A stretch of DNA of 64,000 nucleotides from contig CAVOHZ010000010.1 of the NCBI GenBank assembly GCA_963695855.1, positions 256,001 through 320,000 on the forward strand, given 5' to 3'. The DNA comes from an uncultured Nitrososphaerales archaeon. Lineage in GTDB: Archaea > Thermoproteota > Nitrososphaeria > Nitrososphaerales > Nitrososphaeraceae. The notes beneath the pieces are model-generated. The model was not told the origin of the DNA and ran no database searches. It saw only the letters and a program-made list of their open reading frames with translations. Made by a program: the position numbers and the translations under genes. Shown one piece after another: positions 10,633 through 35,472 of this stretch (position 1 is the first letter of the stretch; each line of letters starts with the position of its first letter).

Positions 10633-11171
10633 TATGAAGGGTAATGATTTAAAAGAAGAGTATCTTTTACTTTTTATATTTATAACTGCTTTTGTTATCA
10701 TGTTATTGAACATAATAATTAGACAGACAATGATAAAATAATAATATATTTGTTTGATATTGTTAATAAATCTGATAATAAATAGGCTATGTCAATTCCT
10801 CGATTGATATTTAATTAAGAATGATAAGATTGGTTGTTTGTATGACACAAGGAATAGAAGATTCAAAACAAGACTATCAGTAAGAAAGAATTTCTATATG
10901 TGAGATAGATTATTTGATATGTTTCTAATTGACGCTGTATATATCTCTTCCTTTCATTAACTGTCTTTATAGAATTAATAATAAGATTTTCTCTTTTAAT
11001 ATAGTAAAAAGAATTTCTACAATTTATCAATTAGCAAATTTCTTGATAGTCGATCTTGAAAAAGATATTAGCGTTCTACTAGATGCGATAATGGAAGGAC
11101 GGGCTCTGTAGGTGAAATGTTCGACAGAGCTAACATTCAAGAAGAAAGCCACTACCAATACTCTTGCAAAT

Positions 11172-12200
11172 ATGTATGCGGCATTAGATTTAGGACAGAA
11201 AAACATTCAGGCAGTATTGAAAAATAAAGATGGTAAGATTATAAAGGAAAATAAAATACAGCGTAATACCAAAACAATACTAGAATTTCTTGATAATAGT
11301 AACAAGAATCATAATAATATTGATATTGTAATGGAGTCTGGTTACAACTATCAATATCTATATGATCTTTTACAAGATGAAGGTTATAATGTAAAAGTAG
11401 CACATCCACTAATGGTCAAGGCAATAGCATATGCTAAAGTCAAGACAGATAAAGTAGATGCTAGAATATTAGCAGATCTACTAAGAATGGATATGATACC
11501 AGAATGTTATATACCTAATAAAGATATAAGAAATTTACGAGATCTAGTTAGACGCAGATACTATTTTGTCAGTATTCGAACAATGTTCAAAAACAAAGCA
11601 CATGTTGAGATGAGTAAAAGATGGTTAGATGCTAATGTGACTAATAATATAACAACAACAATGATTAAAAATGATCCATTTTCTAAAAAAGGAAAATGTC
11701 ATTTACGTTCACTGGGAATACATGCATTAGATGATTGCCTTGATACCATAGATTTTCTAGATAGAAAAATAAAAGAGTTGGATACAGAAATAAAGAAATT
11801 GGCAATAGAAGATAAATACTCTAAACATCTTATGACAATTCCAGGTATATCTTACTATGCAGCTCTTCTAATATCAAGCGAGATAGCAGATATTAACAGG
11901 TTTCCAGACTATGAACATCTGTGTTCTTATGCTAGATTAGTACCTGGTACATATCAATCTGGAAATACATCATTCTCAAAAACAGACAAAAAACAAGGGA
12001 GCAAAATGCTAAACTGGATTATGGTACAGTGTACTCATACACATGTACGTTATTGCCAATCATCGATAACAGTACATTACAACAAGATAAAGAATAGAAA
12101 GAGAAATAACAAAATTGCTATAATTGCAGCAGCAAGAAAATTAATGCGTGTGATATATGTTATGCTAAAGGAAGATCGTCCCTTTAGACTGGATGAATAA
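11172..12200 (+). CDS. IS110-family DEDD recombinase A
   Basis: ALDLG, MES, KTDKVD, TIPGI and QSG motifs; ATG at 11172 preferred over GTG at 11112. Confidence 0.93.
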   Translation: MYAALDLGQKNIQAVLKNKDGKIIKENKIQRNTKTILEFLDNSNKNHNNIDIVMESGYNYQYLYDLLQDEGYNVKVAHPLMVKAIAYAKVKTDKVDARILADLLRMDMIPECYIPNKDIRNLRDLVRRRYYFVSIRTMFKNKAHVEMSKRWLDANVTNNITTTMIKNDPFSKKGKCHLRSLGIHALDDCLDTIDFLDRKIKELDTEIKKLAIEDKYSKHLMTIPGISYYAALLISSEIADINRFPDYEHLCSYARLVPGTYQSGNTSFSKTDKKQGSKMLNWIMVQCTHTHVRYCQSSITVHYNKIKNRKRNNKIAIIAAARKLMRVIYVMLKEDRPFRLDE

Positions 12201-12211
12201 TAATATAGTAT

Positions 12212-12346
12212 AGGACCTCTTGGTTTCTTGCATCGTCATATTGTTATTATTATATGATAAGTATGATGGATGCCATCTGTAGGTTAGGTCTGGCTACTAC
12301 TAGCGCAAAGCCACGGTGCACTATTGGTGCGTATGGGAGAATGCTA
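12212..12346 (+). ncRNA. Predicted bridge/seek RNA of IS110-A
   Basis: Two stems with internal loops; TGGTTTCT (12221-28) and TCTGTAG (12276-82) match the target, ATGGGAG (12333-39) matches the donor end. Confidence 0.8.
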
Positions 12347-12432
12347 TTATTCATCAGTTAATCATATTAGGAACGAGTATTATATGAACATGGGAGAAAC
12401 CATCATAGCTAGCAACATTCTACCATTAATTA

Positions 12433-13344
12433 TTGAACAAACAACAATCAAAATATGTTAGATTAGCAGATCAACTATTACGTATTCTCAAACATTGCAG
12501 AATTCCATTATATTTGCATAGAAAGAGCAACCACATTTACACAGTATGGCAACACATAGTACTTGTTACAATAAGAAGACAGTATGAAGGTAAGAGTTAT
12601 CGAATGTTTACAGACTGGCTTGTTGAAGCATACTATTTGAGATTGTTTTTACAACTATCCAAAATACCACATTATACAACATTACAGAAATTCACAGATA
12701 GAATCAATGTAGTGATGCTTGGAAAGATAATCTCATCTTTTATCTTATTCACAAGAACAAGACGCATATTTACTGGCATAGATTTGACTGGATTCAAAAT
12801 AACACATGCATCAGAGTACTATACTAGCAGAGCAAAACTACGAAGGAAGAAATATGCTAAATTGTCAATTGGCGCAGATGTATTACAACAAATCGTCTGT
12901 TCTATAAAGATAAGGCGAGCTCCAACAAGACATGATAACATAGATTTTAGACCAGTGACAACAAGAATATCAAAAATAAAACCATTATCGGTAGTTGTTG
13001 CAGATAAAGCATATGATAGTGAGGATAATCATGTACTAGTTAGAGAGAAACTAAACGGATTCAGTGTTATACCATCAAGATATGAAAAAGATGTACCAAT
13101 ATGGAAAACTCGTGGCAAATACAGAAAAGAAATGAAACGTGGCTATTCAAAGATTCTGTACAATCAACGTAACAAAGATGAAACTATTGTATTAGTCATA
13201 AAAAGATTGTTTGGAGAACATATATCATCCAGATTAATACGAATGCAGAACAGAGAATTGACTTTCAGATGTATTACATACAATCTTCATAGGATGCTAA
13301 ATTTAATTATTATTAAATGGATTCTACAGAGCCGAAGGACGTAG
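12433..13344 (+). CDS. IS5-family DDE transposase
   Basis: IPHYTTL, GIDLTGF, VADKAYDS and Y.QR...ET....IKRLFG motifs. Confidence 0.9.
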   Translation: MNKQQSKYVRLADQLLRILKHCRIPLYLHRKSNHIYTVWQHIVLVTIRRQYEGKSYRMFTDWLVEAYYLRLFLQLSKIPHYTTLQKFTDRINVVMLGKIISSFILFTRTRRIFTGIDLTGFKITHASEYYTSRAKLRRKKYAKLSIGADVLQQIVCSIKIRRAPTRHDNIDFRPVTTRISKIKPLSVVVADKAYDSEDNHVLVREKLNGFSVIPSRYEKDVPIWKTRGKYRKEMKRGYSKILYNQRNKDETIVLVIKRLFGEHISSRLIRMQNRELTFRCITYNLHRMLNLIIIKWILQSRRT

Positions 13345-14348
13345 AACCTTAAATACGATGAAGTATGTTTTCATGGCAACAAGTGCTAATTTCGGAAATA
13401 TGTTTAGTATGGCTGGTGTATCGTTATTTCTGACATTCCTTCCCCTTTTGCCAAAACAGATACTTCTTACCAACTTGATGACAGACTTTCCAGAAATGAC
13501 AATATCAACAGATAATGTAGATAAAGAAATATTAGAAGTTCCCAGGCATTGGGATCTTAAATTTATTCGTAAATTCATGCTTGTATTTGGTTTTTTAAGT
13601 ACTATTTTTGATTTTCTGACCTTTATTGTACTACTAAATATTTTACACGCAAACATAGAACAATTTAGAACGACATGGTTTATGGAATCAGTTATTTCGG
13701 CTTCACTCGTAGTTTTAATTATCAGAAGTAAAAAACCATTAATGAAAAGTACTCCTGGAAAATTTTTGTTAATTACAACTTTAATAGTTAATATTTTTGT
13801 ACTTGCTATTCCTCTTACTCCTATTGGCCCAATATTTGGATTTGTTGTTATCCCGTTAACATTCTATCTTAGTATAGGAATAATTGTGCTAACGTATGTA
13901 GTTATGGCTGAAGTAATAAAGTGGATCTTTTATAGATTGGTAAAAATGTAATATTAAATCTCTTTTTTGAAACGTCTATAGCGTTTAAATCTGCATGTAG
14001 ATTAATGGTATTTGTTATAGCGGGCAACAATATTAAAAAAGTCATTAATAGCATCAAAACCAAGCAATAGTTCTACTCTCTTAAGTAGTGAATAATTATA
14101 TTTCTTCTAACCTCCTGCATAATATTCCCACAATAGGTTATCCACTTGAGCTATGGTAGTAATTAGTGCAAGACAGGAATAGATAAAAAAAGTATTACAA
14201 TCAAAACTTACGATAAACATATTAATTTATAAAAATTGTCATCAGTTGTTATTTTTCCATAATGATAACCAGTTAAATAATTAATAAGCTTATTAAAAAT
14301 CGAAACTTTATAGATATGCTTAAATCCTAGATCCTGTGAGCAACTGGT

Positions 14349-15170
14349 ATGGCAACTAAATATATTATTTTGTTATTGCCAATAGTGCTAGCTCTAACAA
14401 TACAAATATCAAATACGGAAATCCTTGCACAAACTGGTGGTTTGTCTAATATAGGATCCCCTGATTATGCAGTAAACATAGTTCCAGGTGCCTCTCTAAA
14501 AGAAAATATATTTCATTATTACCCTCCAAAAATTGCAATTCCTGTAGACACTACTGTGAATTGGCTTAATGGAGATGTCGGACAACCACACACAGTAACC
14601 AGTGGACAACCTGGCGCTGCGGATAAAGGTTCGGTATTTAATTCAGGTGTTATGCCCGCCTTCCCTGTCAGAACCTTTCAATTCACTTTCACACAACCTG
14701 GTGAATATCCATATCACTGTATTATTCATCCATGGAGGGTTGCGGTAGTATCTGTAAGTGATATGCTTTTCTCCGGTAAGAGTTTTGATATTGGTATAGG
14801 ATCAGGTGCCATATGGGATATTTCCACTAACCCACGAGTATTACTGGACATTAGCCCAAAGACTGTGCCATTAGACAGAGTTACTCATGTTACCTACAAT
14901 GTAACTATCAAGGATGGCGCAAATAACGCAACATTGCTTTCTAAGCTTTTCACTACAGCTGGTGAATCGCTTCCAGTAGAGTTAGTTTCTGGCATAGGTA
15001 ATGAAAGCATTTCTTATGGACCAGATTTTAGCAGTACAGGAGCTTATCATGTTCAATCAGATTTTAAAAAGGGTTCTTCTTATCCAATAAGTGTAGAAAT
15101 AGTATCAGTTGACTATAAACCAGTACAAGCTCCAATCAAAGCTTCATTCACGATGAAGACTAGTCCTTAA
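14349..15170 (+). CDS. Secreted cupredoxin-domain protein
   Basis: HTVTSG, FNSG, YHCIIHPWR. Confidence 0.88.
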   Translation: MATKYIILLLPIVLALTIQISNTEILAQTGGLSNIGSPDYAVNIVPGASLKENIFHYYPPKIAIPVDTTVNWLNGDVGQPHTVTSGQPGAADKGSVFNSGVMPAFPVRTFQFTFTQPGEYPYHCIIHPWRVAVVSVSDMLFSGKSFDIGIGSGAIWDISTNPRVLLDISPKTVPLDRVTHVTYNVTIKDGANNATLLSKLFTTAGESLPVELVSGIGNESISYGPDFSSTGAYHVQSDFKKGSSYPISVEIVSVDYKPVQAPIKASFTMKTSP

Positions 15171-15361
15171 ATTTTTTCCCACCTAATATTTTTTTCTTTA
15201 AGTTTATAATTACTAATTCAAATAATAGTAATAACTTCTGGTAAGTAATTTTTAATAATAAAATCTTATTAGAAAATATAGGCTAATTGGTATAGATTAC
15301 TTGACTGTTATATCAAAAATGAAAGAAAGGGTATTATTAGGATTGGGATCATTAAAAATAA

Positions 15362-15862
15362 TTGAGTTTAGAATCAATATCTATTTCTAACTGTATGACT
15401 AGAAATGTAAAAACAATTAGCTCAACAGAACAATTATTCAACGCATGTAAAATAATGAAAGATAACTACATAGGATGTGTTGTAGTAGTAGATGAATCTC
15501 ATAGTAACAATCCTATTGGAATAATAACAGAAAGAGACATTGTAAATAATTTATCTTCTCAAGATGCCAATTTACAAATATACTTAAAAGAGATAATGAG
15601 TAAACCTATAGTTACCATTCAAGAAACACATTCTTTAATAGATGCATTACAAACTATGGATAAAAATAACTTTCGTAGGCTGCCTATAACCAATAAGGAA
15701 GGCAAATTAGTAGGTATAGTAACTGATAAAGATATATTTAAAACAATTATCAAGAATAAGGATTTGATATCTGATCTTTACAACAATAAGAATTTTCAAT
15801 TTTCTCAATCTGCACTAGAAGAATATAGAGAACATCTTTTTGAAAATATCTTTCGTCCGTAA
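15362..15862 (+). CDS. CBS-domain pair protein
   Basis: GIITERDIV, RRLPI, GIVTDKDI. Confidence 0.9.
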   Translation: MSLESISISNCMTRNVKTISSTEQLFNACKIMKDNYIGCVVVVDESHSNNPIGIITERDIVNNLSSQDANLQIYLKEIMSKPIVTIQETHSLIDALQTMDKNNFRRLPITNKEGKLVGIVTDKDIFKTIIKNKDLISDLYNNKNFQFSQSALEEYREHLFENIFRP

Positions 15863-15921
15863 CAACTTTAGTTACTATTAATTAGGTAATTATAATAAGA
15901 TTAAATATAGAGTTATATATT

Positions 15922-16241
15922 TGAAATTCAATTTCTGTTTCATAACTTATTAGATATTCCAATGTTTATATCTTTATTATTCTATTAACTTGATGTTTAT
16001 ATTCTTTATAAAAACCATAGTATCATAAATTCTATTCAAATTTGTTTTTTTATATATGTACATATAATTTATTTTATATATACATTTTCGGCCCTTTATA
16101 ATTACGCCATATATATAACGTATTTTGTCAAATAAGTCATATATGGACTTAATTTCAACATTTAGGGCGTTTTTCAGTATATCAACTAATTAGTTTAAAT
16201 ACTAGTGGGTGTATATTCTTTATTTAAACCAAATGATGAAT
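15922..16241 (-). repeat. Diverged inverted copy of 5945-6263
   Basis: Hand alignment; includes the ATG AAA CAG AAA TTG start, after which similarity ends. Confidence 0.9.
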
Positions 16242-16442
16242 AAAACGATTAACCTTTAAGTGAATAATTATCCAAATACGAGATAGTAATAGAAAAACGA
16301 GATACTAATAGAAAATTTACACAAAAGATTTTGTTATGGCTTCTGATGGCAGTTTTGATAAAGTCATAATACTTGCTCAATATTTCGATAATTCACTGTT
16401 GTGCACTTTAAATAATTTTTTTATGTTTTATTTTAATCATTG

Positions 16443-16755
16443 AAAAATTACTTACCAGAAGTTATTACTATTATTTGAATTAGTAATTATAAACTTAAAG
16501 AAAAAAATATTAGGTGGGAAAAAATTTAAGGACTAGTCTTCATCGTGAATGAAGCTTTGATTGGAGCTTGTACTGGTTTATAGTCAACTGATACTATTTC
16601 TACACTTATTGGATAAGAAGAACCCTTTTTAAAATCTGATTGAACATGATAAGCTCCTGTACTGCTAAAATCTGGTCCATAAGAAATGCTTTCATTACCT
16701 ATGCCAGAAACTAACTCTACTGGAAGCGATTCACCTGAGGTAGTGAATAGCTTAG
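16443..16755 (-). repeat. Near-identical inverted duplicate of 14941-15253 (3' end of the cupredoxin gene plus terminator region)
   Basis: Reverse-complement match by eye. Confidence 0.92.
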
Positions 16756-16758
16756 AGA

Positions 16759-16947
16759 ATGGTTTATGGGATAAAATCGGAAGAAAATTCTATTTATGAG
16801 GCTGCGAAAAAGAAAGGAATTGAATTCAAAAAAATTGATTGTAAAGATCTTATTATTGATTTAAATGCCTCTTCAGAAGATTATATAACTCAAACAATAA
16901 GCCAAGAAATTAAAAAACTAAATAAAATGGTACAGATGGTTTTTTAG
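16759..16947 (+). pseudogene. N-terminal fragment of a LysX/RimK-type ATP-grasp ligase
   Basis: EE..IYEAAKKKGIEFKKIDCKDL resembles the LysX N-terminus; truncated. Confidence 0.5.
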
Positions 16948-16999
16948 GACCATTTTATATAGAGAATTCTGCTCAAAAAAACTATTTTATCAGTTGTGA

Positions 17000-17290
17000 A
17001 GAAGATGATTGTTTAAGGAAAACGTCAAGTGATTGGTCTCGAAGAAAGAAAAGAAGTGTATATGTATTGCAGGTACTAGAAAAAGACTATATTGTAGAGA
17101 AGGGTAAGCCTGAAAAGGTAATGCATGATAATGGTAAACAATTCACATTTAAAATATTCAAGCATTTTCTGAAAAGGAACAAGATAAAGGATAATAAACC
17201 AATTCCAAATAGATATTCACAACTACAATACAAGAAAAAATTGAACCATATACAAACAAGATAGTAAAAAATGAATTTTTAGCCGTCGAA
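17000..17290 (+). pseudogene. rve-type (IS481/IS3-like) transposase remnant
   Basis: GKPEKVMHDNGKQF motif; frameshifted. Confidence 0.7.
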
Positions 17291-17390
17291 AATTATCTCA
17301 AGTCTTGAATAATAGTGTTTAACTTTTGTCAATCATTTAAGAAATAATTTTAATTGGTAATTGGAACTAAATAAAATTGAGTGGATACTC

Positions 17391-17990
17391 TTATATCATT
17401 TCTCTTGATTTTGTACCTTTTCTATAATATATCAATAGAAAACCTACTCCTCCTGATATTATCCCTAAAAGTAAAATAATAATTGCAGTAGAAATAGGTT
17501 CAATGAAAGGAGCTAATATTTGATGTGCTTGTCCACCGTTAAATCCTTGTCCTCCAACATTTTCAGGAAGCATTGCTGCTCCACCTATATACCCCGCATA
17601 CATTAACATACCCATTGTAGATGTTGTTCCAATATTCATAAGTAAAAGATGTATCCAAGCTAATAGTTTAGTTAGCTGCTTATTATAGGGCTTTGCTAGA
17701 ATTCTTTCAAGATAATAGTAGAACAGAGCAGAAACCGCAACCCCCATTACTCCAACAACTATGTACATAATATAACCAAAAGTAAACCAGGTTCCTGCAC
17801 CCCCAGCTGCAATTACTCTTGAAATTTCTGGTTTTAGAAAAGATATTTGACTAAAAACAAGAAAAAGTGTTAATCCAACGATGATTGCTCCTTGAATAAT
17901 GGCAGCACAGATAAATCGATTAGTCCATGTTATAGATAAATGGTTATTATGACAGTTAGTGTCATCATTACTTTCTCCTTCTGAATTCAT
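17391..17990 (-). CDS. Four-TM membrane protein
   Basis: Hydrophobic helices; LAWIHLLLMNIG. Confidence 0.75.
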   Translation of the reverse strand: MNSEGESNDDTNCHNNHLSITWTNRFICAAIIQGAIIVGLTLFLVFSQISFLKPEISRVIAAGGAGTWFTFGYIMYIVVGVMGVAVSALFYYYLERILAKPYNKQLTKLLAWIHLLLMNIGTTSTMGMLMYAGYIGGAAMLPENVGGQGFNGGQAHQILAPFIEPISTAIIILLLGIISGGVGFLLIYYRKGTKSREMI

Positions 17991-18287
17991 TTTTTCCTTT
18001 TATTATACACATTAACTTACAAGATAGAAATAGATTGTGGTTTGTAGGATGCCATTGCTTTAACAAAATAAATTAATTTTTTCAATTGCATCATATCTTT
18101 TACATAGGACAATTAGTTTATCATAGTGATATTGAGCACTAAAACTCTGTCCATTTAACTTACGACGGGCCAGTAGTTTTCTCAGATCCATCTCCTAGAG
18201 ATATATTTCTTAGTTAAGTTAATTAGATGATTCATCAACAGATCCAATCATATACTGGATAGTTTACACCACCAGCAGGCAGGGTTC

Positions 18288-18819
18288 ACAGTAATATCTA
18301 CAGATGAATCATTTTTCTTCTATGACTTTCTTGTAAGAAGAGTCTGGATAAGAAAAGATGAAGACCAGTTGTAAGAATTACAGGGTCCCATCAGGAATCC
18401 ATCTTATTTGGTGCTACAAGTTTAGAAGGAAATCAGTTATTCAGGCAGTATGACTGGTTTGATGAAAATACCTCTTTAGATTACCTAAAAACAGATACGC
18501 AGAAAATTTCCAAAATGTTATCTGTTTCTTGATAAGGCAAAACAACATTACAGATCGAAAAAGGTACTACAATATTTTGCTGACAATAGAGATAGTTTGA
18601 TTCCAGTTTATCTTCCAACAGCATCTCCTGAATTTATGGTACTGCAAGAGATATGGCATATAGCCAAAAAAGATCTGCTTGTTCTACAACAATACTATTC
18701 ATGCTTTACCAATTTCAGAAATAAAATATCTAAATATTTTAGAACAAAAAGATTCAATCTGGATATGAAAAATTACCTAGTTAGAGGTGAGTAAGTAAGC
18801 ATATTTATCTTAATTGGTA
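18288..18819 (+). pseudogene. IS630 3' remnant (same family as 41306-42434)
   Basis: DES, LDKA..H and YLPTASPE motifs; ends in TTAATTGGTA followed by TA. Confidence 0.88.
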
Positions 18820-20495: not shown

Positions 20496-21673
20496 GAGAG
20501 TGGGTCATAATTCATTAAACGAATATTGTAATGTTAACAATAGTATATACTCAATCCTTATGTTCCTAACATGTATTTGATTGCTCTGGGATTATCCTTG
20601 TTGGTTTTACAGTTGTAGTATACAAGAATCTGGTATAGCAAAACTGATAGTAGTACTATAGCACAACCCTTGGCGTATCCTCGTACAGGTAATGGATCTA
20701 TCCTGAACGCGGATTTGATATGTTGTATCAACGGCTCAATTGATATACTTCTCAAGGAATAGATAGCCTGTCCAATATTCGATTCATAAAATTCAACTAA
20801 TTTTATCCGGTCAGCAGATGTATTTTCATATCTTTTTACTGGACACACCAATTGAAATCCCATATCTGTACTGAGATCATATAATTTATGATCATCGTAT
20901 CCAGGATCTGCAGACATGAATAATGTTCTTTTTATAATCCTAAAAGGAATACTTGCTGTCAACATACTGTATATTTGATTGTCAGGTATGTTGGCAGTTG
21001 TAAAATCTGCTGCCAAAGGTACAATGATAGAACCAGTACTAGAAGATATCATATGTAATTTGTATCCAAATATCCAACCTTTTGTATGACTGAATCCCCA
21101 CATTGCATCAGTATCAATACCGGAACGTGGTACTACTTTTTTCTTTATAGATGATTTATGCCAGACATGACCTTTAGCCTTTACAAGTGTACTGTCTGTT
21201 GAAAGAACAGATGGATCGATTATTTTATCGTGAACAAAAATATCACTCATTATAGTTATTCTGTTTTTAATATCATTGGATATTGTGACAAGGCGTCTAT
21301 CAAATGTTCTTCTGCTAGGTACTCTGTATAGCCCACATACTTTCATTACCTTTTTGTTATACGATAGATCCATTGCAAGGTATTCATGCAATGCTCTGTT
21401 AGAATCCAATCTAAACCAAATACGTACTATAAAGCATCTCAAGATAACAGTAGGAGAATAGACATATGGTCTACCACGTCCCCCTCCTCCTCCTCTATTA
21501 TTTTTATGTGGCCAACGAATCAAACCAATCAAATACAAAATACTAATTAGAATAGATGTTGATCTTTTCTGCTGTGCTAGTTTGTTGGTTTGGATGATAA
21601 TTACACCAAAACATCATACACCAATAAACTAGCTTTATTCGTTATGAAAATGGAATAATTATGACCCAGCCTC
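20496..21673 (-). mobile_element. IS element with a DDE_Tnp_1-type transposase
   Basis: TIRs GAGAGTGGGTCATAATT / AATTATGACCCAGCCTC; 8-bp TSD AAATAATT at 20488-95 and 21674-81. Confidence 0.9.
20558..21538 (-). CDS. DDE transposase (IS4/IS5/IS982-like)
   Basis: GRPYVY, TDST, GWIFGYKLH, ADPGYD and R..SIE....IK motifs. Confidence 0.88.
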   Translation of the reverse strand: MYLIGLIRWPHKNNRGGGGGRGRPYVYSPTVILRCFIVRIWFRLDSNRALHEYLAMDLSYNKKVMKVCGLYRVPSRRTFDRRLVTISNDIKNRITIMSDIFVHDKIIDPSVLSTDSTLVKAKGHVWHKSSIKKKVVPRSGIDTDAMWGFSHTKGWIFGYKLHMISSSTGSIIVPLAADFTTANIPDNQIYSMLTASIPFRIIKRTLFMSADPGYDDHKLYDLSTDMGFQLVCPVKRYENTSADRIKLVEFYESNIGQAIYSLRSISIEPLIQHIKSAFRIDPLPVRGYAKGCAIVLLSVLLYQILVYYNCKTNKDNPRAIKYMLGT

Positions 21674-22414: not shown

Positions 22415-23605
22415 ATGAGATTCGTAGGTTCAAAGGGGATTAGATTTTCAGAGACGAACAGAAAGTGTTGTATCTGCTTTATTGATGTTGTAGATTCAAC
22501 AAAAAATACTTTGAAATTTACTGATTTAAACTATACAAGAAAATATTACTCGACATTTATTAACTCTATATATGAAATAGTAAAAAAGTATAATGCAAAG
22601 GTTGTAAAAAACATTGGCGATTCATTACTATTTTATTTCCCTGAGACTGCTGATAGTATAAATATTTCAAGGTTTGGAAAGGCATTAGAATGCGGTTTGG
22701 AAATTCTTGAAAATCGTCAAAATGTTAATGATAAATTATCAGATGAAAACTTTCCACCATTTAACTATAGGATAAGCATGGATTACGGACCGGTTGAAAT
22801 GGCCTTATCAGGCGAGTACAATCAATTAGATATTTTTGGATCCGCAGTAAACCTATGTGCCAAAATTAATATTCTATCTAACCCAAATGAATTAGTAATA
22901 GGAGACAATTTCTATAGAATCCTAAATGCTTATTCACCTATTGTCGAAAAGCATTACTTGTTTAATTTTTCTAAAGATTTTACTGTTTTAAATGGTTGTG
23001 AAACTTGTTCTCAAAAGAATGTATGCAAATTGTTTCGTGTAGCAGGAGAGTATATGAGTTTAGAGGATACAAAATATTCATGTTATATTATTAAAAGAAA
23101 ATATCCAAAAAATTTATCCTATAAAAATCAATATATTTCCAAATTAAATAATACAAGAGGTCCTGAATTTTCTATTCTTGATGGTCAGAAAGATCAGGTT
23201 GAATATGAGAAAGAATATAGAGATTATAATAATATAAAAAAAATTATTCTGGTTGATGATAATCCTGAAGTTTTATACACTTTGGAATCATTTTTGACTG
23301 AATTTAAGTACAATATTAATTCCTTTACAGATTACACACAGGCATTACAATACATGAGATCAAATCCATTCTATGATAATCTTTTGATAATAACAGATAT
23401 TGTATTAAAAAAAGAGAATGGATTGCAGTTTTATCTACAGGCCAAAACTATTGATCCAACTATAAAATTTCTTTTTATTACTGGATATGATATTGTAGAT
23501 GAGGTAATATCCGTAATCCCTGGTCTGAATAAGGGTTACATAGTTAGAAAACCTATAGAAAAAAATACGTTTGTGAATAAGGTAAATTCACTACTACCTA
23601 TCTAG
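22415..23605 (+). CDS. Class III adenylate/guanylate cyclase fused to a receiver domain
   Basis: FIDVVDST, KNIGD, DIFGSAVNLCAKI; IILVDD...ITD...FITG...RKP. Confidence 0.88.
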   Translation: MRFVGSKGIRFSETNRKCCICFIDVVDSTKNTLKFTDLNYTRKYYSTFINSIYEIVKKYNAKVVKNIGDSLLFYFPETADSINISRFGKALECGLEILENRQNVNDKLSDENFPPFNYRISMDYGPVEMALSGEYNQLDIFGSAVNLCAKINILSNPNELVIGDNFYRILNAYSPIVEKHYLFNFSKDFTVLNGCETCSQKNVCKLFRVAGEYMSLEDTKYSCYIIKRKYPKNLSYKNQYISKLNNTRGPEFSILDGQKDQVEYEKEYRDYNNIKKIILVDDNPEVLYTLESFLTEFKYNINSFTDYTQALQYMRSNPFYDNLLIITDIVLKKENGLQFYLQAKTIDPTIKFLFITGYDIVDEVISVIPGLNKGYIVRKPIEKNTFVNKVNSLLPI

Positions 23606-24572: not shown

Positions 24573-24687
24573 TAAATTTATTATACATTAAACACATATA
24601 TAAAAAGAGTTTTGTACAACTAAACAATCAAAAACTTTGCTTATATTATTGAGCTAAAAATAAAAAAATAAAAGAAATGATGATTGA

Positions 24688-27606: not shown

Positions 27607-28221
27607 GTAATTTCATTTTTTTTATTTTTTACCAATCATAAATAGTTAAATTTTTAATTTTTCTAGCAGTGCCATTTTCAATAAATTTTTCTGAGAATTT
27701 AAATAAACATCCCTTATTTATTTATCATTGAATCTTTAAAGAATGAAAATGGAAATTTATATTGTCGTAATAATTGAAATTACCAATAATCAAATTAGAA
27801 AAAGATAACCTTGAACATTTTTAATACAAATAATGAAATTGTGTTAACTTGTAAAAAAAACTAATTTCTTGACAACGATAAAGCACATCAATTTGAATTT
27901 GCCATATATGGGAATTGACATATTCGGTATTTAGCTTTTTATTAGGAAATCAGAAGTCTTCTCAGGACCTGTGTCATTGATTTCAGCTTTAATCTTGAAT
28001 TGTTATGAGTTCAACAGACACTTGATTCATCAATAACAATCACTCCCTTAGAATCTACAATTAATAACGGCAATAATACAACAACAGTAAGAGAACAGAC
28101 AACAACGATAGGACCTGTTGCCTCTTTATAATAAATTTTTAAGCATATTGGTGAAGTAAATGCAAGACAGATAAAAAAAGTAAATTTACAATTAAAAAGA
28201 TGATTATATAGGACAGCTTGT

Positions 28222-29349
28222 TTACATACCACCGCCACCGTTCATTGACATACCACCACCACCACCACCGTTCATTGACATATTCATTGAATTAGAACCC
28301 ATCATAGAACCAGTATTGGTAGCATTTTTAGAGGGAGAAAGAGTGAATGTCATTTCGTTTTTCACATTTTGATTATTTTTACTAATACTAGTACCATCAT
28401 CATTCTGTACTATTTTCTGAGCAATATTCAGAATATCAGGTTTTGTTAACATGACATGAACTATGTCTTTAGAGGAATTTGTTCTATCTACCATTATTGA
28501 TTTAGGAGACAAATCAATATTATTGATAGTACCTGTATATCCGTTGGCAGCTAAAGGACTAGGATTTGGAATGGATAATTCCTCGTGAACATAAACACTC
28601 ACTTTTTTTAACCTATCAAGATTCCAATCAAAAGGCATTCCAAATTTTAATTCATTATTAGGAGAATCATAGTTGAAATTATTTAATTCGTCATAATATG
28701 AAATTGCTTGTATTGGATAAGATGTTCCATTAATTTCAATATTCTTATCTATTGAATAACCTACACTAAGCCAGCCTTCATACACAGGCTGTTTATCTGT
28801 TGGAAGCATGGTTGTGTCAAAATCAAGTGTTACTATAGTGACAATAAAGTGATATAGCCCTCCCTCGGCAAATATTGGACCTGTTGCAGATACAAGATGT
28901 TCCATATCGCCAGTATAAGCTGCCATAATAGGGTCTTGTTCCCCATATATTATAATGTGATCAGCACTAGAAGGTTTCATCTGTATTCCTAGATTGCCTG
29001 TATGAGAATGAAAAGTATCTAATAATAGACGCTTTCCACTTTTTTCAATCTCTATTAGATATGTTACATGGTTTATACTTTTATTAGTAGCTTTATCATC
29101 TAGTTTGAATTGAATTAAAGGATTTTGACCACCTTTTAAAGTCTCTGTTGTAACTACAGGAGGCCACATCTTTATCAAAAGTGAAAGGTCCCTTCCACCC
29201 ACGGATGCTGATAATTCTTCCATAAACAAACCATCTCCAAATATGGGAATAAATGGAAATGAGCTAGTAACAAATAGCAGAGGAAGAATAGCAAATAAAA
29301 TAGAGATTATAAATCTATTAGTTTTCATAATGGTAGTAATAATAATCAT
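28222..29349 (-). CDS. Secreted thaumarchaeal-type protein with His motifs and a Met/Gly-rich tail
   Basis: Signal peptide; HVTY, FHSH, GGLYHF and VHEE motifs. Confidence 0.75.
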   Translation of the reverse strand: MIIITTIMKTNRFIISILFAILPLLFVTSSFPFIPIFGDGLFMEELSASVGGRDLSLLIKMWPPVVTTETLKGGQNPLIQFKLDDKATNKSINHVTYLIEIEKSGKRLLLDTFHSHTGNLGIQMKPSSADHIIIYGEQDPIMAAYTGDMEHLVSATGPIFAEGGLYHFIVTIVTLDFDTTMLPTDKQPVYEGWLSVGYSIDKNIEINGTSYPIQAISYYDELNNFNYDSPNNELKFGMPFDWNLDRLKKVSVYVHEELSIPNPSPLAANGYTGTINNIDLSPKSIMVDRTNSSKDIVHVMLTKPDILNIAQKIVQNDDGTSISKNNQNVKNEMTFTLSPSKNATNTGSMMGSNSMNMSMNGGGGGGMSMNGGGGM

Positions 29350-29520
29350 TTATAGTATTATAATATTATTGTTATAGAACCTTGTCAAATCCTCGGTTTA
29401 TCTATATTTGATATTTGAAATAAATGTGTCAAAAGTAGATTGATATTATTTATTACAAATGCAAACAGTTGAAGCTGGGCCATAATTCGGTTAGTAAAAG
29501 CTCAATAAATAATCGATAAA

Positions 29521-29570
29521 AAGTTTATTCTAATTCTGTCTTTATAAGTTTATTCTAATTCTGTCTTTAT
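29521..29570. repeat. Perfect 25-bp tandem duplication
   Basis: AAGTTTATTCTAATTCTGTCTTTAT x2. Confidence 0.9.
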
Positions 29571-29901
29571 GTATGATAATTGCAGGATTGTAGTACTAAG
29601 CAAACAAGAAAAGAGACAGAACAAAAAAACATCATTGTATAACCAGTTTCAGACTATTGCTATCAAATGAGTTCTATTATTAGAAAATTAAATCCATAGG
29701 CCAAAGATATAAAATTCAAAATAGATAGATTTACTGAAACATTTTTGAATGAGCTATTATCTCTGGTATTTCTATTGTCATGTATTCCTTACATTTTTGG
29801 TTGTCTAGAGTAATTTATAAAAAAACCAACGAATTTTTGTTTGCATTCTGTTAGTTAGTGTTGCAAGGTACTCATAATTTTTAAATAGCACTATAAGTAG
29901 C

Positions 29902-30732
29902 GTGTTATTAATGTTACATAATTTTGTTTCAGTAGTTGTTGTTGCATCAATCTTTCTAGTTACTATAGTAGCCTCTAATCAGGTATCTGCACAACCTGTA
30001 AGTATCTTACAACAGAATAATAATGCAATCTATGCAGTAAGCATAGTTCCTGGTGCAGCACAAAAAAATAATACTTATCATTACTATCCACCCGTTATTG
30101 CTGTACCTCAGGGAACGACTGTTGGTTGGTTCAACAGCGATTATGGACAGCCGCATACTGTAACTAGCGGTGCAATAGGTGATGCTGATTCTGGTTCTCT
30201 ATTTAACTCTGGTATTATGCCTGCAACTGCTAATTCATTCTTTCAATATACATTTTCAAAAACTGGAGATATTCTGTACCACTGTGAAATTCATCCATGG
30301 CGAGTAGGAAAGGTCTCTACAAATAACGTATATGAAACAGGACATTATTTCCAAATTTCTTATGGTGCAGGGGCTTCATGGGATTTAACAAAGGATCCTA
30401 GGTCACTTATGATTATCAAACCAAGTACTGTTCCCCTAGATAAAAAAACTGCAATTTCCTATAATATTACTATCCAAGATAGCGAAGATAAAAGATTATT
30501 CTCAAATAACTATAATACAATCGGGGATAGTCTTCCGATAGAATTTATCTCTGGTGGAAATGAAACGAGTTCATATGGTCCAGATTTTAGTAGTACAGGT
30601 GCATATCATGTCCTAGCAGGATTTCTAGAGAACGATAAAGCCTATAAAATGACAGCTGAGATTAGTTCTATAAATTACCAACAACCAGATTCTAGAATAA
30701 TAGACGAGTTTATTTTTAAAACCGTTTCTTAA
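29902..30732 (+). CDS. Secreted cupredoxin-domain protein (paralog of 14349)
   Basis: HTVTSG, YHCEIHPWR; shares SYGPDFSSTGAYHV with 14349. Confidence 0.88.
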   Translation: MLLMLHNFVSVVVVASIFLVTIVASNQVSAQPVSILQQNNNAIYAVSIVPGAAQKNNTYHYYPPVIAVPQGTTVGWFNSDYGQPHTVTSGAIGDADSGSLFNSGIMPATANSFFQYTFSKTGDILYHCEIHPWRVGKVSTNNVYETGHYFQISYGAGASWDLTKDPRSLMIIKPSTVPLDKKTAISYNITIQDSEDKRLFSNNYNTIGDSLPIEFISGGNETSSYGPDFSSTGAYHVLAGFLENDKAYKMTAEISSINYQQPDSRIIDEFIFKTVS

Positions 30733-30844
30733 TATTTTTATTTTATCTATCTATATCGTTGGTCATATCATTTCTTCTGCAAAATAATACAATCACGTTA
30801 AGATATTTTTAAATGTTCTACATGCTAATTAGTTATTTTCAAAT

Positions 30845-31200
30845 CAGTTATTTTTCAAATCATCCTCAATTTGACAAAATTGTTCTAATACTGATTTAAG
30901 ATTTTCGATTATTTCCTGTCTTATTATATTTGGGAAAGTAAGATTATCCGAATCTTGAAGACTCTCATCTCTTGAACAGAAAACATCAAGATTGACTTTC
31001 TCTTTTTAAAAGTTCATCATAAGTAAAACTTTTGAATCTTTCCGTTTCCTTTCTCTTGTGTCTGTTTTCAGGGTTATAACATTTTATGAAATCTTTCAAA
31101 ACTTCATATTGAGTGCCAATCTTCAGAGTAAATTTTTATCTTTTTGTAAATTATTCTTTATTGTTGTAACAAGAGACAAAGATGTTGATTGGTTCCATAC
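30845..31200 (-). pseudogene. hsdM: C-terminal remnant of a type I restriction-modification M subunit
   Basis: CYNPENRHKRKETERFKSFTYDEL.KR.KVNLD....DESLQDSDNL...IIRQEIIENL. Confidence 0.7.
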
Positions 31201-31401
31201 GATAAAAAAATGACTATCTCTTGGTTAATTAAATGATATTAGACGCCTTCAAAATATTGGGCATTTCATTTAATGTAAACAGATACATATTGTATAAAAT
31301 TAGAAGTGCCATAGTAGCCTAACTGCAGCGATTTGAATTTGTCATATACGGTGCCTTGTTGAATACATGTAAAAGTCTTTTCCTGTTATCTATTCTCTTA
31401 T

Positions 31402-31543
31402 CCAACTGGCTAACCCCTTGTTGTGCGTGACCTGTCTTACTAGGATAAGGTCTTGCTTGTTGAATGGGGATATGTGTAAGCTGCTGTATATGTGAGCCAT
31501 AAAGAGCTCTGATAGATGTTTGCAGCTTTGTCTGGCTAGTTGG
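31402..31543 (+). ncRNA. Predicted bridge RNA of IS110-B copy 1
   Basis: Closing stem CCAACTGGCTA/TGGCTAGTTGG and two internal-loop hairpins with target and donor guides. Confidence 0.8.
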
Positions 31544-31590
31544 TTGGTTGGTTGGTATACTGATACTAGTATCATAATAAAAAAAAGGAG

Positions 31591-32706
31591 GTGAAAAAGA
31601 GAATAGAAGAAAAAATAATAGAATCAAGAAAAGATGATAGTTACTATATTGCGGTAGACATTGGAAAGAAAAACTGTGTTGTATGTATAACAGATAAGGA
31701 TGGTTCCATAATAGAAGAAACAAAATATGATAATACTCTACAAGAAGCAGAAAGATTTGCTTCTCATTTGGATAAAAAGTATAGCAACAGAAAATGTCAT
31801 GCTGTTTGTGAATCAACAGCGAATATGTGGTTAAAGACATACGAAGCATTTGAGAAATATGGTATAGATGTTAAACTGGCTAATCCTCTGAAGACCAAGG
31901 CAATAGCAGAAGCAAGGATAAAAACAGATAAACTAGATGCTAGAATATTAGCACATTTACTACGATCTAATTTGATTGCAGAATCATATATTGCTCCAGA
32001 TAATGTAAGAGAGGATAGATCTCTACTACGACTGAGAATAAACCTCGTACATGACAGAACCAGAGTTATGAATAGAGTACATTCCCTGTTGGATAAATAT
32101 GATCTGAAATGCAGGTATGAGCATATATTTGGTGTAAATGGTATCAGATGGCTAAAGAGTATAGAACTAAAACTGAAAGGTAATAATGACCAGGTTCAAC
32201 TTGCCAACTACATAAAAAATATTGAATTTCTAAATTCTGAAATCAGACAAATTGAAAAACAGAAATCTGCTGAGGCATCGCACAATGAAAATGTAAAGAT
32301 ATTGATGAGCATGACAGGAATCGACTATTTTTCTGCAATGCTCATTAGTTCTGAGATAGGAGATATATCCAGATTCAGAACAGCAGAAAAACTTGTCTCA
32401 TGGTGTGGATTGTGTCCAACTATATATCAATCAGGTAACTCGATGTATATGGGTAGAATGAAAAAAGATGGAAACAAAAAGATAAACTGGATCATGATTC
32501 AGGCAGCGAATACAGCATCAAGGACAGACGAAAGAATGAAAAAATATTATATAAAGATAGCAAAAAGACATGGACATCATGTAGCGATAACTCATGTAGC
32601 AAACAAGATGATAAGGATAATCTGGTCAATGCTAACATACAAACAACTGTACAATGAAAGAAAAAAGGAACTATATGAGACAAAACTTAAGAAGATCCAG
32701 AATTAA
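31591..32706 (+). CDS. IS110-family DEDD recombinase B
   Basis: AVDIG, CEST, KTDKLD, MTGID and QSG motifs; GGAGG just upstream. Confidence 0.95.
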   Translation: MKKRIEEKIIESRKDDSYYIAVDIGKKNCVVCITDKDGSIIEETKYDNTLQEAERFASHLDKKYSNRKCHAVCESTANMWLKTYEAFEKYGIDVKLANPLKTKAIAEARIKTDKLDARILAHLLRSNLIAESYIAPDNVREDRSLLRLRINLVHDRTRVMNRVHSLLDKYDLKCRYEHIFGVNGIRWLKSIELKLKGNNDQVQLANYIKNIEFLNSEIRQIEKQKSAEASHNENVKILMSMTGIDYFSAMLISSEIGDISRFRTAEKLVSWCGLCPTIYQSGNSMYMGRMKKDGNKKINWIMIQAANTASRTDERMKKYYIKIAKRHGHHVAITHVANKMIRIIWSMLTYKQLYNERKKELYETKLKKIQN

Positions 32707-32874
32707 TGTAAAGTGATACATCATTGCTATGTATCATACTGACTGACAGATAAAGTATCAAACATTACACGGCAGTAGTAGTATTTGGATAAGGAAAATG
32801 ATCAGAAGAGACTTTTACATAGATGCCCAACTCATTTTGCCTAACACATTTAGCTAACCAAATCTAGTCATATT

Positions 32875-33783
32875 ATGTGAACTGGAGAAATCACAACGAA
32901 TCTCTTGTCAAACGTGGCGAGGTATTACTTGATTGTGATGTTATAGATAACTGGAATACTGAACGAGAGAAGATGAATAAGGACAAGAAAGGAAGGTAGA
33001 AAATTCGTATATCCAGATTCATTGATCAAGTTATTCGGATACATGAGAGCATATTTTCACTTACCTTACAGACAAACAGAAGGCGTAGTTAGGGAACATG
33101 CTTCAAACACACTACCATCTATTCCAGATTATAGTAACATTAGTAGAAGAATAAACAGACTGGATATCAAGATTTCTGATGATGATATAACCAAATCTAA
33201 CTTGCATGATGATAATTTTGTAATTGCAATTGATTCTACTGGTGTTAAAGTTACAAACAGGGGTGAATGGATTAGACACAAGTGGAATGTAAAGAGAGGT
33301 TATCTAAAGATACATGTAGCAGTAGACATAAAAAAGAAGAGAATTTTATCACTGCATGTAACCAGTGAAGAAGTACATGATGGAAAAGTACTTCGAAAAT
33401 TAATAGATGAGATTACAGTAAAGAATAACAAAATGATATATACTGCCATCATCATGGACGGTGCCTATGATAGTAACAAGATCTTTCAGTATCTGTCATT
33501 TAAAGGCATACAACCAGCAATAAAGGTAAGAAAGAATTCCATGTGTAGAAAGAAGACCAATCATTACCTTAGAAACAAGATGGTGAAAATGCAGAACAAT
33601 AATTTGCAAGAATGGAAGGATAGCGATAGCTATGGCAAGAGGTGGATAGTTGAATCTGTCTTCTCCTGTATCAAGAGAATGTTTGGAGAATATGTTACTG
33701 CTATCAGGTTAGAGAACATGATAAGAGAGATAATGTTGAAAGCATCGTTGTATAACTGGTTTCAAAGTATAACTGTTACATAA
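32875..33783 (+). pseudogene. IS5 (ISH1-like) transposase, frameshifted near the N-terminus
   Basis: NWRNHNESLVKRGE is out of frame with the LPYRQTEG, IDSTG, KIHVAVD, DGAYD and RWIVES motifs. Confidence 0.85.
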
Positions 33784-33947
33784 TTATCAATCATATAATA
33801 ATGAGAAAGATTGTTTAAACGAGTTATGCATCTATGTAAAAGTCTCTTCTGATCATTTTCCTTATCCAAATACTACTACTGCCGTGTAATGTTTGATACT
33901 TTATCTGTCAGTCAGTATGATACATAGCAATGATGTATCACTTTACA

Positions 33948-35063
33948 TTAATTCTGGATCTTCTTAAGTTTTGTCTCATATAGTTCCTTTTTTCTTTCAT
34001 TGTACAGTTGTTTGTATGTTAGCATTGACCAGATTATCCTTATCATCTTGTTTGCTACATGAGTTATCGCTACATGATGTCCATGTCTTTTTGCTATCTT
34101 TATATAATATTTTTTCATTCTTTCGTCTGTCCTTGATGCTGTATTCGCTGCCTGAATCATGATCCAGTTTATCTTTTTGTTTCCATCTTTTTTCATTCTA
34201 CCCATATACATCGAGTTACCTGATTGATATATAGTTGGACACAATCCACACCATGAGACAAGTTTTTCTGCTGTTCTGAATCTGGATATATCTCCTATCT
34301 CAGAACTAATGAGCATTGCAGAAAAATAGTCGATTCCTGTCATGCTCATCAATATCTTTACATTTTCATTGTGCGATGCCTCAGCAGATTTCTGTTTTTC
34401 AATTTGTCTGATTTCAGAATTTAGAAATTCAATATTTTTTATGTAGTTGGCAAGTTGAACCTGGTCATTATTACCTTTCAGTTTTAGTTCTATACTCTTT
34501 AGCCATCTGATACCATTTACACCAAATATATGCTCATACCTGCATTTCAGATCATATTTATCCAACAGGGAATGTACTCTATTCATAACTCTGGTTCTGT
34601 CATGTACGAGGTTTATTCTCAGTCGTAGTAGAGATCTATCCTCTCTTACATTATCTGGAGCAATATATGATTCTGCAATCAAATTAGATCGTAGTAAATG
34701 TGCTAATATTCTAGCATCTAGTTTATCTGTTTTTATCCTTGCTTCTGCTATTGCCTTGGTCTTCAGAGGATTAGCCAGTTTAACATCTATACCATATTTC
34801 TCAAATGCTTCGTATGTCTTTAACCACATATTCGCTGTTGATTCACAAACAGCATGACATTTTCTGTTGCTATACTTTTTATCCAAATGAGAAGCAAATC
34901 TTTCTGCTTCTTGTAGAGTATTATCATATTTTGTTTCTTCTATTATGGAACCATCCTTATCTGTTATACATACAACACAGTTTTTCTTTCCAATGTCTAC
35001 CGCAATATAGTAACTATCATCTTTTCTTGATTCTATTATTTTTTCTTCTATTCTCTTTTTCAC
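33948..35063 (-). CDS. IS110-family recombinase B, copy 2
   Basis: 371 aa, identical to 31591-32706. Confidence 0.95.
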   Translation of the reverse strand: MKKRIEEKIIESRKDDSYYIAVDIGKKNCVVCITDKDGSIIEETKYDNTLQEAERFASHLDKKYSNRKCHAVCESTANMWLKTYEAFEKYGIDVKLANPLKTKAIAEARIKTDKLDARILAHLLRSNLIAESYIAPDNVREDRSLLRLRINLVHDRTRVMNRVHSLLDKYDLKCRYEHIFGVNGIRWLKSIELKLKGNNDQVQLANYIKNIEFLNSEIRQIEKQKSAEASHNENVKILMSMTGIDYFSAMLISSEIGDISRFRTAEKLVSWCGLCPTIYQSGNSMYMGRMKKDGNKKINWIMIQAANTASRTDERMKKYYIKIAKRHGHHVAITHVANKMIRIIWSMLTYKQLYNERKKELYETKLKKIQN

Positions 35064-35110
35064 CTCCTTTTTTTTATTATGATACTAGTATCAGTATACC
35101 AACCAACCAA

Positions 35111-35252
35111 CCAACTAGCCAGACAAAGCTGCAAACATCTATCAGAGCTCTTTATGGCTCACATATACAGCAGCTTACACATATCCCCATTCAACAAGCA
35201 AGACCTTATCCTAGTAAGACAGGTCACGCACAACAAGGGGTTAGCCAGTTGG
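35111..35252 (-). ncRNA. Predicted bridge RNA of IS110-B copy 2
   Basis: Reverse complement of 31402-31543. Confidence 0.8.
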
Positions 35253-35294
35253 ATAAGAGAATAGATAACAGGAAAAGACTTTTACATGTATTCA

Positions 35295-35472
35295 ACAAAC
35301 TAGCATTTTTGTCTTGATCATTATATTCAGCCAAATCCAACAAAGATTTAATAAAGAATAGTTTATACGTGCTCGATAATTTAGGAGCGCTAAAGAGCGA
35401 ATTAACTTTTACCAGATAATGTTGATAACCACTTTCTTTTTCGTTTTCAAATCGGTTATCTATGTCAAGCAT
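35295..35472 (-). pseudogene. N-terminal fragment of a probable HNH-endonuclease-family protein, truncated at IS110-B
   Basis: SSTYKLFFIKSLLDL motif; ORF runs into the IS. Confidence 0.5.

Follow-up and report, generated by a model that had tools for sequence, protein, structure and literature searches.

The stretch of DNA considered here, 64,000 nucleotides from an uncultured Nitrososphaerales archaeon (contig CAVOHZ010000010.1) and referred to in full as the window, raises the question why each IS110-family element in it lies directly against the end of another insertion sequence (IS). Only three full IS110-family genes are present in the window, one in an element designated IS110-A and two in copies of a second element, IS110-B, and each of them is found at the end of an IS5-family transposon (IS5A and IS5B, respectively), as a first-pass annotation of this DNA had noted. 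We consider it very probable that these are IS1111-type elements in which an RNA loop, encoded in the non-coding end, is tuned to the inverted repeats that terminate DDE transposons resident in the genome. The genome searched comprises 3.55 Mb on 11 contigs and contains six full copies of IS5A and about two dozen of IS5B; its archaeal nature is confirmed by the archaeal SSU and LSU models, which score best within their Rfam clans. Junctions were fixed by copy-to-copy comparison and by reading the sequences, within the window at 10600-14100 and 29700-35500; when subterminal repeats were sought automatically, numerous pairs proved false and some ends were overlooked. IS110-A and its host are laid out as follows.

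11094-11101, no strand: left copy of the 8-bp target duplication GAAGGACG of IS5A, with the same 8 bases at 13334-13341
11102-11109, plus strand: tip GGCTCTGT, positions 1-8 of the IS5A left inverted repeat, severed by IS110-A (intact copies: GGCTCTGTAGAAACCATC)
11110-12394, plus strand: IS110-A, 1285 bp (junctions read; three identical genomic copies)
11172-12200, plus strand: IS110-A transposase gene (PF01548, 4.9e-24; PF02371, 2.8e-18)
12395-13333, plus strand: remainder of IS5A, with the core AG, repeat positions 11 onward, transposase and right repeat (NF033579, 146.7 bits)
13334-13341, no strand: right copy of the target duplication GAAGGACG, matching the left copy

The ends of IS110-A read AG GTGAA ATGTTC ... 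GAACAT GGG. The core dinucleotide AG at 11110-11111 recurs at 12395-12396, where the right junction continues as AG AAACCATC and the IS5A host runs on to 13333; with the IS110-A insert included, IS5A spans 11102-13333, and its right repeat reads GGCTCTGTAGAATCC in reverse complement. The open reading frame of the IS110-A transposase is listed from a GTG at 11112, with the ATG at 11172 as its likely start. Uninterrupted IS5A left repeats read GGCTCTGTAGAAACC (two copies) and GGCCCTGTAGAAACC (a third) and follow directly upon an 8-bp duplication. Since the intact copies of IS5A, and those of IS5B described below, begin exactly where the repeats had been placed, the IS110 cores correspond to repeat positions 9-10. 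The first-pass annotation had put two IS110 lineages, A with the core AG and B with the core TG, at these very positions of IS5-family repeats, and both the junctions and the intact copies bear this out.

Genome-wide, IS110-A occurs in three copies that are 100% identical over 1288 bp, and every one of them (3/3 in 3.55 Mb) sits at the same base of an IS5A left repeat, with the core AG as positions 9-10. The three occupied IS5A hosts carry different target duplications (ATTCTTCT, GAAGGACG and ATTCTATAC) and are only 86-89% identical to one another; for two of them, unoccupied copies are more closely related, with identities of 98.5% and 97.6%. As the hosts differ to this extent, possess duplications of their own and carry inserts that are 100% identical, the IS110-A insertions were independent events. 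On the outer side of the copies, the shared sequence is limited to the repeat tip of 8-10 bp, after which unique flank begins, and this makes gene conversion an unlikely source of IS110-A. Half of the left repeats of IS5A are occupied (3/6) and none of the right ones (0/6); all six right repeats deviate from the left repeat at position 5 or 13, positions covered by the two guide pairings predicted below. The association of IS110-A with IS5A left repeats exceeds what chance would provide.

Several further observations concern IS110-A and its host. The IS5A transposase frame in the window (12433-13344) reads through the right inverted repeat, with its stop codon TAG (13342-13344) located in the flank. 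Elsewhere in the genome, a relic (L035, G000:C3:39411-39742) with 93.5% identity preserves the last third, on the 3' side, of an element like IS110-A. Its guides are intact and its right flank reads AG AAACC; on the 5' side it is truncated by one end of an IS6-like element. In a soil RNA library (run X15), a contig of 1301 nt is about 95% identical to IS110-A over window positions 11102-12312. It starts precisely with the repeat tip (11102), outside of which the flank differs; it fits a further insertion in a relative and is no proof of transcription.

IS110-B is found in both ends of a single IS5B copy.

31352-31359, plus strand: tip TGCCTTGT, positions 1-8 of the IS5B left inverted repeat (intact IS5B copies: TGCCTTGTTGCACAACT)
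31360-32823, plus strand: IS110-B copy 1, 1464 bp, core TG (junctions read)
31591-32706, plus strand: IS110-B transposase gene, 371 amino acids (PF01548, 3.1e-27; PF02371, 1.4e-24)
32824-33830, plus strand: IS5B interior between the cores TG (32824-32825) and CA (33829-33830) (NF033579, 231.4 bits)
33831-35294, minus strand: IS110-B copy 2, 100% identical to copy 1 (transposase frame 33948-35063)
35295-35302, minus strand: IS5B right inverted-repeat tip TAGTTTGT, in reverse complement (family consensus TGGTTTGT)

Copy 1 reads TG AATAC ATGTAAAAGTCT ... AGACTTTTACAT AGA, followed by TG CCCAACTC of the host, whose interior contains the transposase frame 33022-33783 and is about 90% identical to many genomic copies. 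Copy 2 has the left flank TAGTTTGT (35295-35302, reverse complement) and the right flank TG CATAACTC. Both copies have the same orientation relative to the repeat that they occupy, with their left ends outward, and TG is found at all four junctions. Uninterrupted IS5B copies start with TGCCTTGTTGCACAACT in 15/25 rows, directly after 8-bp duplications, and their ends read TGGTTTGTTGCATAACT in reverse complement, again bounded by 8-bp duplications. For lineages A and B, as well as for the lineage C introduced below, removal of the IS110 element together with one core copy restores an intact repeat known from other loci; thus, the empty-site reconstruction proposed in the first-pass annotation yields sites equal to intact repeats elsewhere in the genome. 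A pattern search of the window itself found no reconstructed empty site, as expected.

The doubly occupied IS5B copy lacks a target duplication, its outer flanks being ATATACGG (31344-31351) and GCATTTTT (35303-35310), and no partner flank that would explain this was found genome-wide. Elsewhere in the genome, at L036 (G000:C8, near 372438, minus strand), four tandem 10-nt IS5B tips (TGCTGTGTTG TGCCTTGTTG TGCCTTGTTG TGCTTTGTTG) directly precede an IS5B-like copy, and these units look like the tips of different subfamilies. Partial repeat duplications also adjoin IS110 copies at L018 in the genome G010 and at L050 in the genome G185. Such tandem or partial tips may be footprints of a carry-over of flanking bases.

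IS110-A and IS110-B are IS1111-type members of the IS110 (DEDD) family, and the same holds for at least two further lineages in this genome. Both transposases carry the domains DEDD_Tnp_IS110 and Transposase_20 and exceed the cut-off of 140 bits of the NCBIfam model NF033542 ("IS110 family RNA-guided transposase"), with 218 bits for A and 250.5 bits for B. Their hosts belong to the IS5 family, as judged by scores above the cut-off of the NCBIfam IS5-family model NF033579 (140 bits), terminal inverted repeats, and 8-bp duplications at many copies. Insertion of the IS110 elements is site-specific, with no duplication beyond the 2-nt core at both junctions. According to PMC11187229, IS1111 elements are recognized by subterminal inverted repeats, usually of 11-13 bp, and by extensions of 7 bp on the left and 3 bp on the right. 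The left extensions found here are 7 nt long (A, AGGTGAA; B, TGAATAC; C, TGACGAT; D/F, TAACTAT), the right ones 3 nt (A, GGG; B, AGA; C and D/F, GGA), and the subterminal repeats comprise 12 perfect bp in B (ATGTAAAAGTCT/AGACTTTTACAT), 10 bp in C (ATGAAAATCT/AGATTTTCAT) and 6 bp in A (ATGTTC/GAACAT). The end geometry common to A and B, to which the first-pass annotation had drawn attention, is therefore real, but as a trait of the IS1111 family at large it does not indicate a special link between the two. The group is also described as having a long non-coding region downstream of the transposase gene, with few exceptions (PMC11187229). In IS110-A, 194 nt are non-coding downstream versus about 60 upstream, whereas IS110-B has about 230 nt upstream versus 117 downstream, and the guide loop of lineage C lies upstream of the gene.

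It is this non-coding end from which the guide RNA of IS1111 elements, the seekRNA, is derived; it contains a segment complementary to the target top strand and, 3' of it, a segment for the bottom strand (PMC11187229). In the bridge RNA of the related element IS621, a single internal loop pairs through one side with the left bottom strand and through the other with the right top strand, and both sides include the core (PMC11208160). Two segments of the window are candidates for such loops.

12213-12291, plus strand: putative target loop of an IS110-A seekRNA, 3' non-coding region (fold z = -2.26)
31414-31469, plus strand: putative IS110-B loop for target binding, 5' non-coding region (consensus fold; single-sequence fold z = -2.8; covariation)

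The putative loop of IS110-A contains TGGTTTCT (12221-12228), which is complementary to AGAAACCA, and TCTGTAGGT (12276-12284), which has the sequence of the left junction. Of 20000 shuffles, only 0.02% reached both matches (9 nt and 8 nt) at once. In IS110-B, GTTGTGC on the 5' side of the loop (31420-31426) is the complement of G+CACAAC (core and right flank), and CTTGTTGAAT on the 3' side (31456-31465) is identical to the left junction; the right guide fits the commonest IS5B left repeat (TG CACAAC, 15/25 rows) better than the two sites that IS110-B occupies. An RNAalifold consensus of nine lineage-B sequences has the order CCCC / loop / hairpin / loop / GGGG with two compensatory pairs, CCCC and GGGG forming the basal stem, and the fold of IS110-A (stem / internal loop / hairpin) has the same architecture. 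At the level of sequence, the order of the guides agrees in A, B, C and the lineage of the genome G312 (see below): the top-strand match lies 5' of the bottom-strand match, and the two overlap at the insertion point. The first-pass annotation was also right that the A and B proteins, which are 35% identical, and their guide-like loops differ.

Two other segments of IS110-A were considered in this context. The sequence ATGGGAGAA at 12333-12341 in the 3' non-coding region is identical over its 9 nt to the right junction (IS end, core and 2 nt) and is a candidate for a second guide directed at the donor or the junction. The other, ACAGAGC, lies close to the left end and corresponds to GCTCTGT in reverse complement; it was discarded as a guide, since in the relatives L002 and L010 it fails to vary with the flank.

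A loop that selects its target by base pairing should change together with that target, and lineage B, represented by ten elements from four species in IS5B-type repeat variants, provides such a series. Representative guides and the flanks next to them are listed here.

L006: left guide TGTGTTGAAT, left flank ..CTGTGT
L007: left guide TCTGTTGAAT, left flank ..CTCTGT
L022: left guide TTTGTTGAAT, left flank ..CTTTGT
L027: left guide TTTTGTTGAAT, left flank ..GTTTTGT
L006: right guide GTTATGC, right side GCATAGC
L026: right guide GTTGCGC, right side GCGCAAC
L018: right guide GTTAGAC, right side GCCTAAC

In 10/10 elements, the left guide agrees with the core and with an unbroken run of 4-6 bases of the flank (p = 0.0016), and the right guide forms 6-7 of 7 pairs in 7/8 elements (p = 0.0245); both values, like those for lineage C, come from permutation tests in which flanks were shuffled among elements and relatedness was ignored. 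Judged from the aligned sequences, the predicted loop bases of lineage B change in step with the repeat variants across species.

Lineage C extends this picture to another type of host. It is present in five copies in the genome and in further copies in five related genomes, and its target is GG(C/T)(C/T)(C/G)[TG]TTAA(G/T/C)TTAAG, with the core at positions 6-7 of an IS6-like repeat of which 38 uninterrupted examples remain in the genome. The elements that end in this repeat are 723 bp long, make an 8-bp duplication and encode a protein of 219 amino acids, and short derivatives carry it as well; the protein scores 36.9/39.9 bits with PF13610 (cut-off 27) and 103/99 bits with the NCBIfam IS6 model, whose cut-off is 125. 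Among the copies from related genomes, an IS6-like gene adjoins the C element in L005, L008, L013 and L020. The right guide AA[x]TTAACA pairs with TGTTAA[x']TT at 9/9 positions (G-U pairs counted) in 10/11 elements (p = 1e-4), and the left guide GG... TGAC is identical to the left flank at 5/5 bases in 9/11 elements (p = 3.5e-4). Lineage D/F, with the core TA, behaves differently again: in G010 it lies inside the IS5B transposase gene, in the same codon on two contigs (L003 and L012; site ..GATAGCGTTAGC[TA]TGG..), and in the studied genome it adjoins subterminal IS6-like sequence. The D and E lineages of the studied genome are chimeric or truncated, and their targets are partly read. Transposons other than their own are thus the usual targets of these elements in this genus, and neither the IS5 family nor repeat positions 9-10 constitute a rule.

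These data bear on the alternative that the transposase protein itself recognizes the inverted repeat and that the complementary non-coding segments are no functional guides. In its favour, the subterminal repeats of IS1111 elements have been taken to suggest that the ends, at least, are recognized by protein (PMC11187229). Such recognition would not account for a covariation that proceeds base by base, involves both loop sides with both flanks, and is found in two lineages, nor for loops that are retuned in relatives with 44-47% protein identity (see below); moreover, experiments on members of the IS110 family have established that such an RNA exists (PMC11187229, PMC11208160). We therefore regard target choice by protein as very unlikely.

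How far loops tuned to transposon ends reach was followed in 41 related genomes, 10 of which contain IS110-family genes, and in 301 genomes of the class, 47 of which encode a B-like transposase. Among the B-like copies of five multi-copy genomes, an IS5-like gene is adjacent in 10/24, distributed as follows.

G312: IS5-like neighbour at 5/6 copies
G185: IS5-like neighbour at 3/4 copies
G189: IS5-like neighbour at 1/5 copies
G155: IS5-like neighbour at 1/6 copies
G075: IS5-like neighbour at 0/3 copies

The junction set does not extend to the second sub-lineage of G312 (L070-L072) or to the copies in G155 and G075. Three of the G312 copies occupy TAGCC(T/C)GT[TG]CATAATT, corresponding to TAGCCTGT[TG]CATAATT repeats, and three G185 copies occupy TAGTCTGT[TG]CACAACT; because unique sequence starts eight bases before the core in both genomes, the position is again 9-10. 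G312 even contains one IS5 element with both ends occupied, as in the window. These relatives derive from another family of the same order, and their 5' regions keep the arrangement CCCC / loop / hairpin / loop / GGGG with retuned bases, the loop sides being ATTATGCAT and TGTTGAAT in G312, while the loop TCTGTTGAA fits in G185. The four G189 copies have no repeat-like flank in common. A test for terminal-repeat targets based on inverted copies of the site was significant in 6/28 cases (1/14 in other genera); it missed 8/14 known positives and is hence weak.

The adjacency of IS110 and IS5 elements might also reflect hitch-hiking, in that a single insertion of IS110 into IS5 created a composite which IS5 transposition then multiplied, with no repeated targeting. 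Such a composite would keep a repeat tip at its outer end, as is found, and the two G185 composites L050 and L073, 94% identical over 2708 bp that cover the IS110 element and the neighbouring IS5, may indeed have spread as a unit. For lineage A, however, the IS110 copies are identical while their hosts differ by 11-14%, two occupied hosts are most closely related to unoccupied ones, and the host and IS110 trees already disagree; B and C, in turn, occupy repeat variants in several species with matching changes in their guides. In our view, this makes hitch-hiking very unlikely as the general explanation. Homologous recombination or gene conversion among the many similar IS5 copies, to which the missing duplication of the IS5B copy in the window might point as a sign of some rearrangement, is hardly credible as a substitute for site-specific insertion, because the outer homology of 8-10 bp before unique flanks is too short, the hosts are 86-89% identical against 100% for the insert, and the covariation of guide and flank would be left unexplained.

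A maximum-likelihood tree of 39 full-length transposases of the class, rooted at its midpoint with no outgroup, places these lineages in relation to one another; rows with stops or fewer than 320 amino acids, six exact duplicates and L065 (from an unpublished genome) were dropped from it. One major branch unites B, G185 and the pair from G312 with lineages that have other or unassigned targets; the second contains A (with D/F), C and others, A and L003 being long branches. A and B thus fall among lineages for whose targets nothing points to an IS end. They are distinct lineages, as the first-pass annotation had stated, but do not make up a clade defined by IS5 targeting. The first-pass annotation had envisioned a clade of recombinases that retunes its guides to variants of IS5 repeats: the retuning is supported by the lineage-B loops and by G312 and G185 at positions 9-10, but A and B do not form one dedicated clade.

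In the mechanism that we propose, the non-coding end of each element would encode a small RNA with one internal loop, matching the target loop of a seekRNA or bridge RNA. The loop of A would be tuned to the left repeat of one IS5 element and that of B to both repeats of another, with exchange at positions 9-10, and the loop of C to IS6-like repeats, with exchange at positions 6-7. A circular form of the element would insert by site-specific recombination at the 2-nt core, in a fixed orientation and with no duplication beyond the core. Being present in many copies and located away from host genes, the repeats would offer many harmless landing sites, from which the element would presumably benefit, and as the repeat sequences drift, the loop bases would drift along. 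Insertion would also be expected to inactivate the transposon end that it splits, so that the "safe sites" and the "immobilised host IS" of the first-pass annotation are both possible consequences of this scheme. The occupied IS5A copies retain open frames of 299-301 amino acids, with no sign of decay.

Several observations weigh against RNA-guided targeting of this kind. The IS110-A loop is free of sequence variation and hence provides no covariation signal, and the subterminal repeat of this element, at 6 bp, falls short of the length usual in IS1111. Within lineage B, the right guide of L029 forms only 4/7 pairs, L007 and L027 show AG instead of TG after their right ends, and a degenerate left-end fragment at C10:1289921 is without a recognizable repeat tip; in G185 the right guide reaches 5/7 pairs only. 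The neglect of relatedness in the permutation tests has to be counted on the same side. Despite the perfect fit of the B guide to the commonest variant, 49 uninterrupted IS5B-type repeats remain in the genome, which indicates either low activity or another limit on insertion. When positions 10500-36000 were scanned against Rfam with E values of at most 1, the only hits were three unrelated ones below threshold, and none was to a family of bridge or seek RNAs. The IS1111 group is further characterized by a circular intermediate with a junction-formed promoter; neither a circle joint nor an IS-skipping joint was found for positions 11000-13400 in the assembled contigs of four public runs.

A wider and more tentative reading joins these results, one that we offer as a possibility and would not yet bet on. 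The IS1111-like elements of this order of ammonia oxidisers might mainly parasitise other transposons. One large branch might have followed the end repeats of IS5-type elements from a time before the order divided into families; it would always have cut between positions 8 and 11 and have adjusted its RNA loop to the drifting repeats. By disabling the end whose tip they split, such elements would act as RNA-guided silencers of DDE transposons, and tandem arrays of tips would be the footprints of insertion and excision. The elements described here would, in any case, represent a natural series of retargeted seekRNA or bridge-RNA loops, in which both sides shift with multicopy targets across species and archaeal families; on this series, the rules by which guides pair with their targets could be tested beyond the bacteria. 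They also show that in genomes without REP-like repeats, the ends of other transposons serve as repeated landing pads. Finally, the long-suspected disabling of one transposon by another becomes testable with the pairs IS110-A/IS5A and IS110-B/IS5B.

The window contains one further transposase gene of the DDE_Tnp_1/DUF772 type (20558-21538, minus strand), which has no adjacent IS110 element. Its neighbour (22415-23605, plus strand) encodes an adenylate/guanylate cyclase domain fused to a receiver domain.

With respect to known systems, the first-pass annotation had named IS4321 and IS5075 as precedents. These members of the IS1111 group reportedly possess subterminal inverted repeats and sit at a fixed position and in a fixed orientation within the terminal repeat of another transposon, as the elements do here; their host is a Tn3-family transposon in bacteria, whereas IS5- and IS6-like hosts in an archaeon are used in the present case. 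They are indeed of the same kind, and their targets are the 38-bp repeats of the Tn21 family (Partridge and Hall 2003, cited in PMC11208160), but a nearer precedent exists in IS1383. The inverted repeats of IS1384 are its specific target in Pseudomonas putida H (Muller, Lauf and Herrmann 2001, cited in PMC11208160), and IS1384 is classed in the IS5 family in a table of PMC5141477. Going by the title of the 2001 paper, IS1383, a member of the IS110 family, thus targets inverted repeats that belong to another IS, as found here; it is bacterial, whereas the present host is an archaeon with several such lineages and with both IS5-like and IS6-like repeats as targets. No description of archaeal IS110 targets was found in the literature searched, the consulted parts of a preprint on archaeal IS110 recombinases (10.1101/2024.06.21.599552) included, and the supplementary tables of the 2024 surveys may list such sites.

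In terms of mechanism, the closest counterparts are ISEc11, ISKpn4 and ISPa11 (Siddiquee et al. 2024, PMC11187229), which have the 7-nt and 3-nt extensions, the order and overlap of the guides, and the location of the guide in the non-coding end in common with the elements studied here. Their RNA is encoded downstream of the gene, as predicted for A, whereas the loops of B and C lie upstream, an arrangement reported for "a few" members (PMC11187229). Their targets are attC sites, repetitive extragenic palindromic (REP) elements and others, and not IS ends. The pairing logic of the left and right target guides (LTG/RTG) of IS621 (Durrant et al. 2024, PMC11208160) equals that of the loops described above; the order of its guides, as given there, is reversed, its core is CT, subterminal repeats are absent, and the donor is bound by a loop of its own, whereas a donor guide is represented here only by the 9-nt candidate in A. 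An IS110-family element aimed at IS5-family repeats is therefore of a kind already known from bacteria, and the present cases are its archaeal members.

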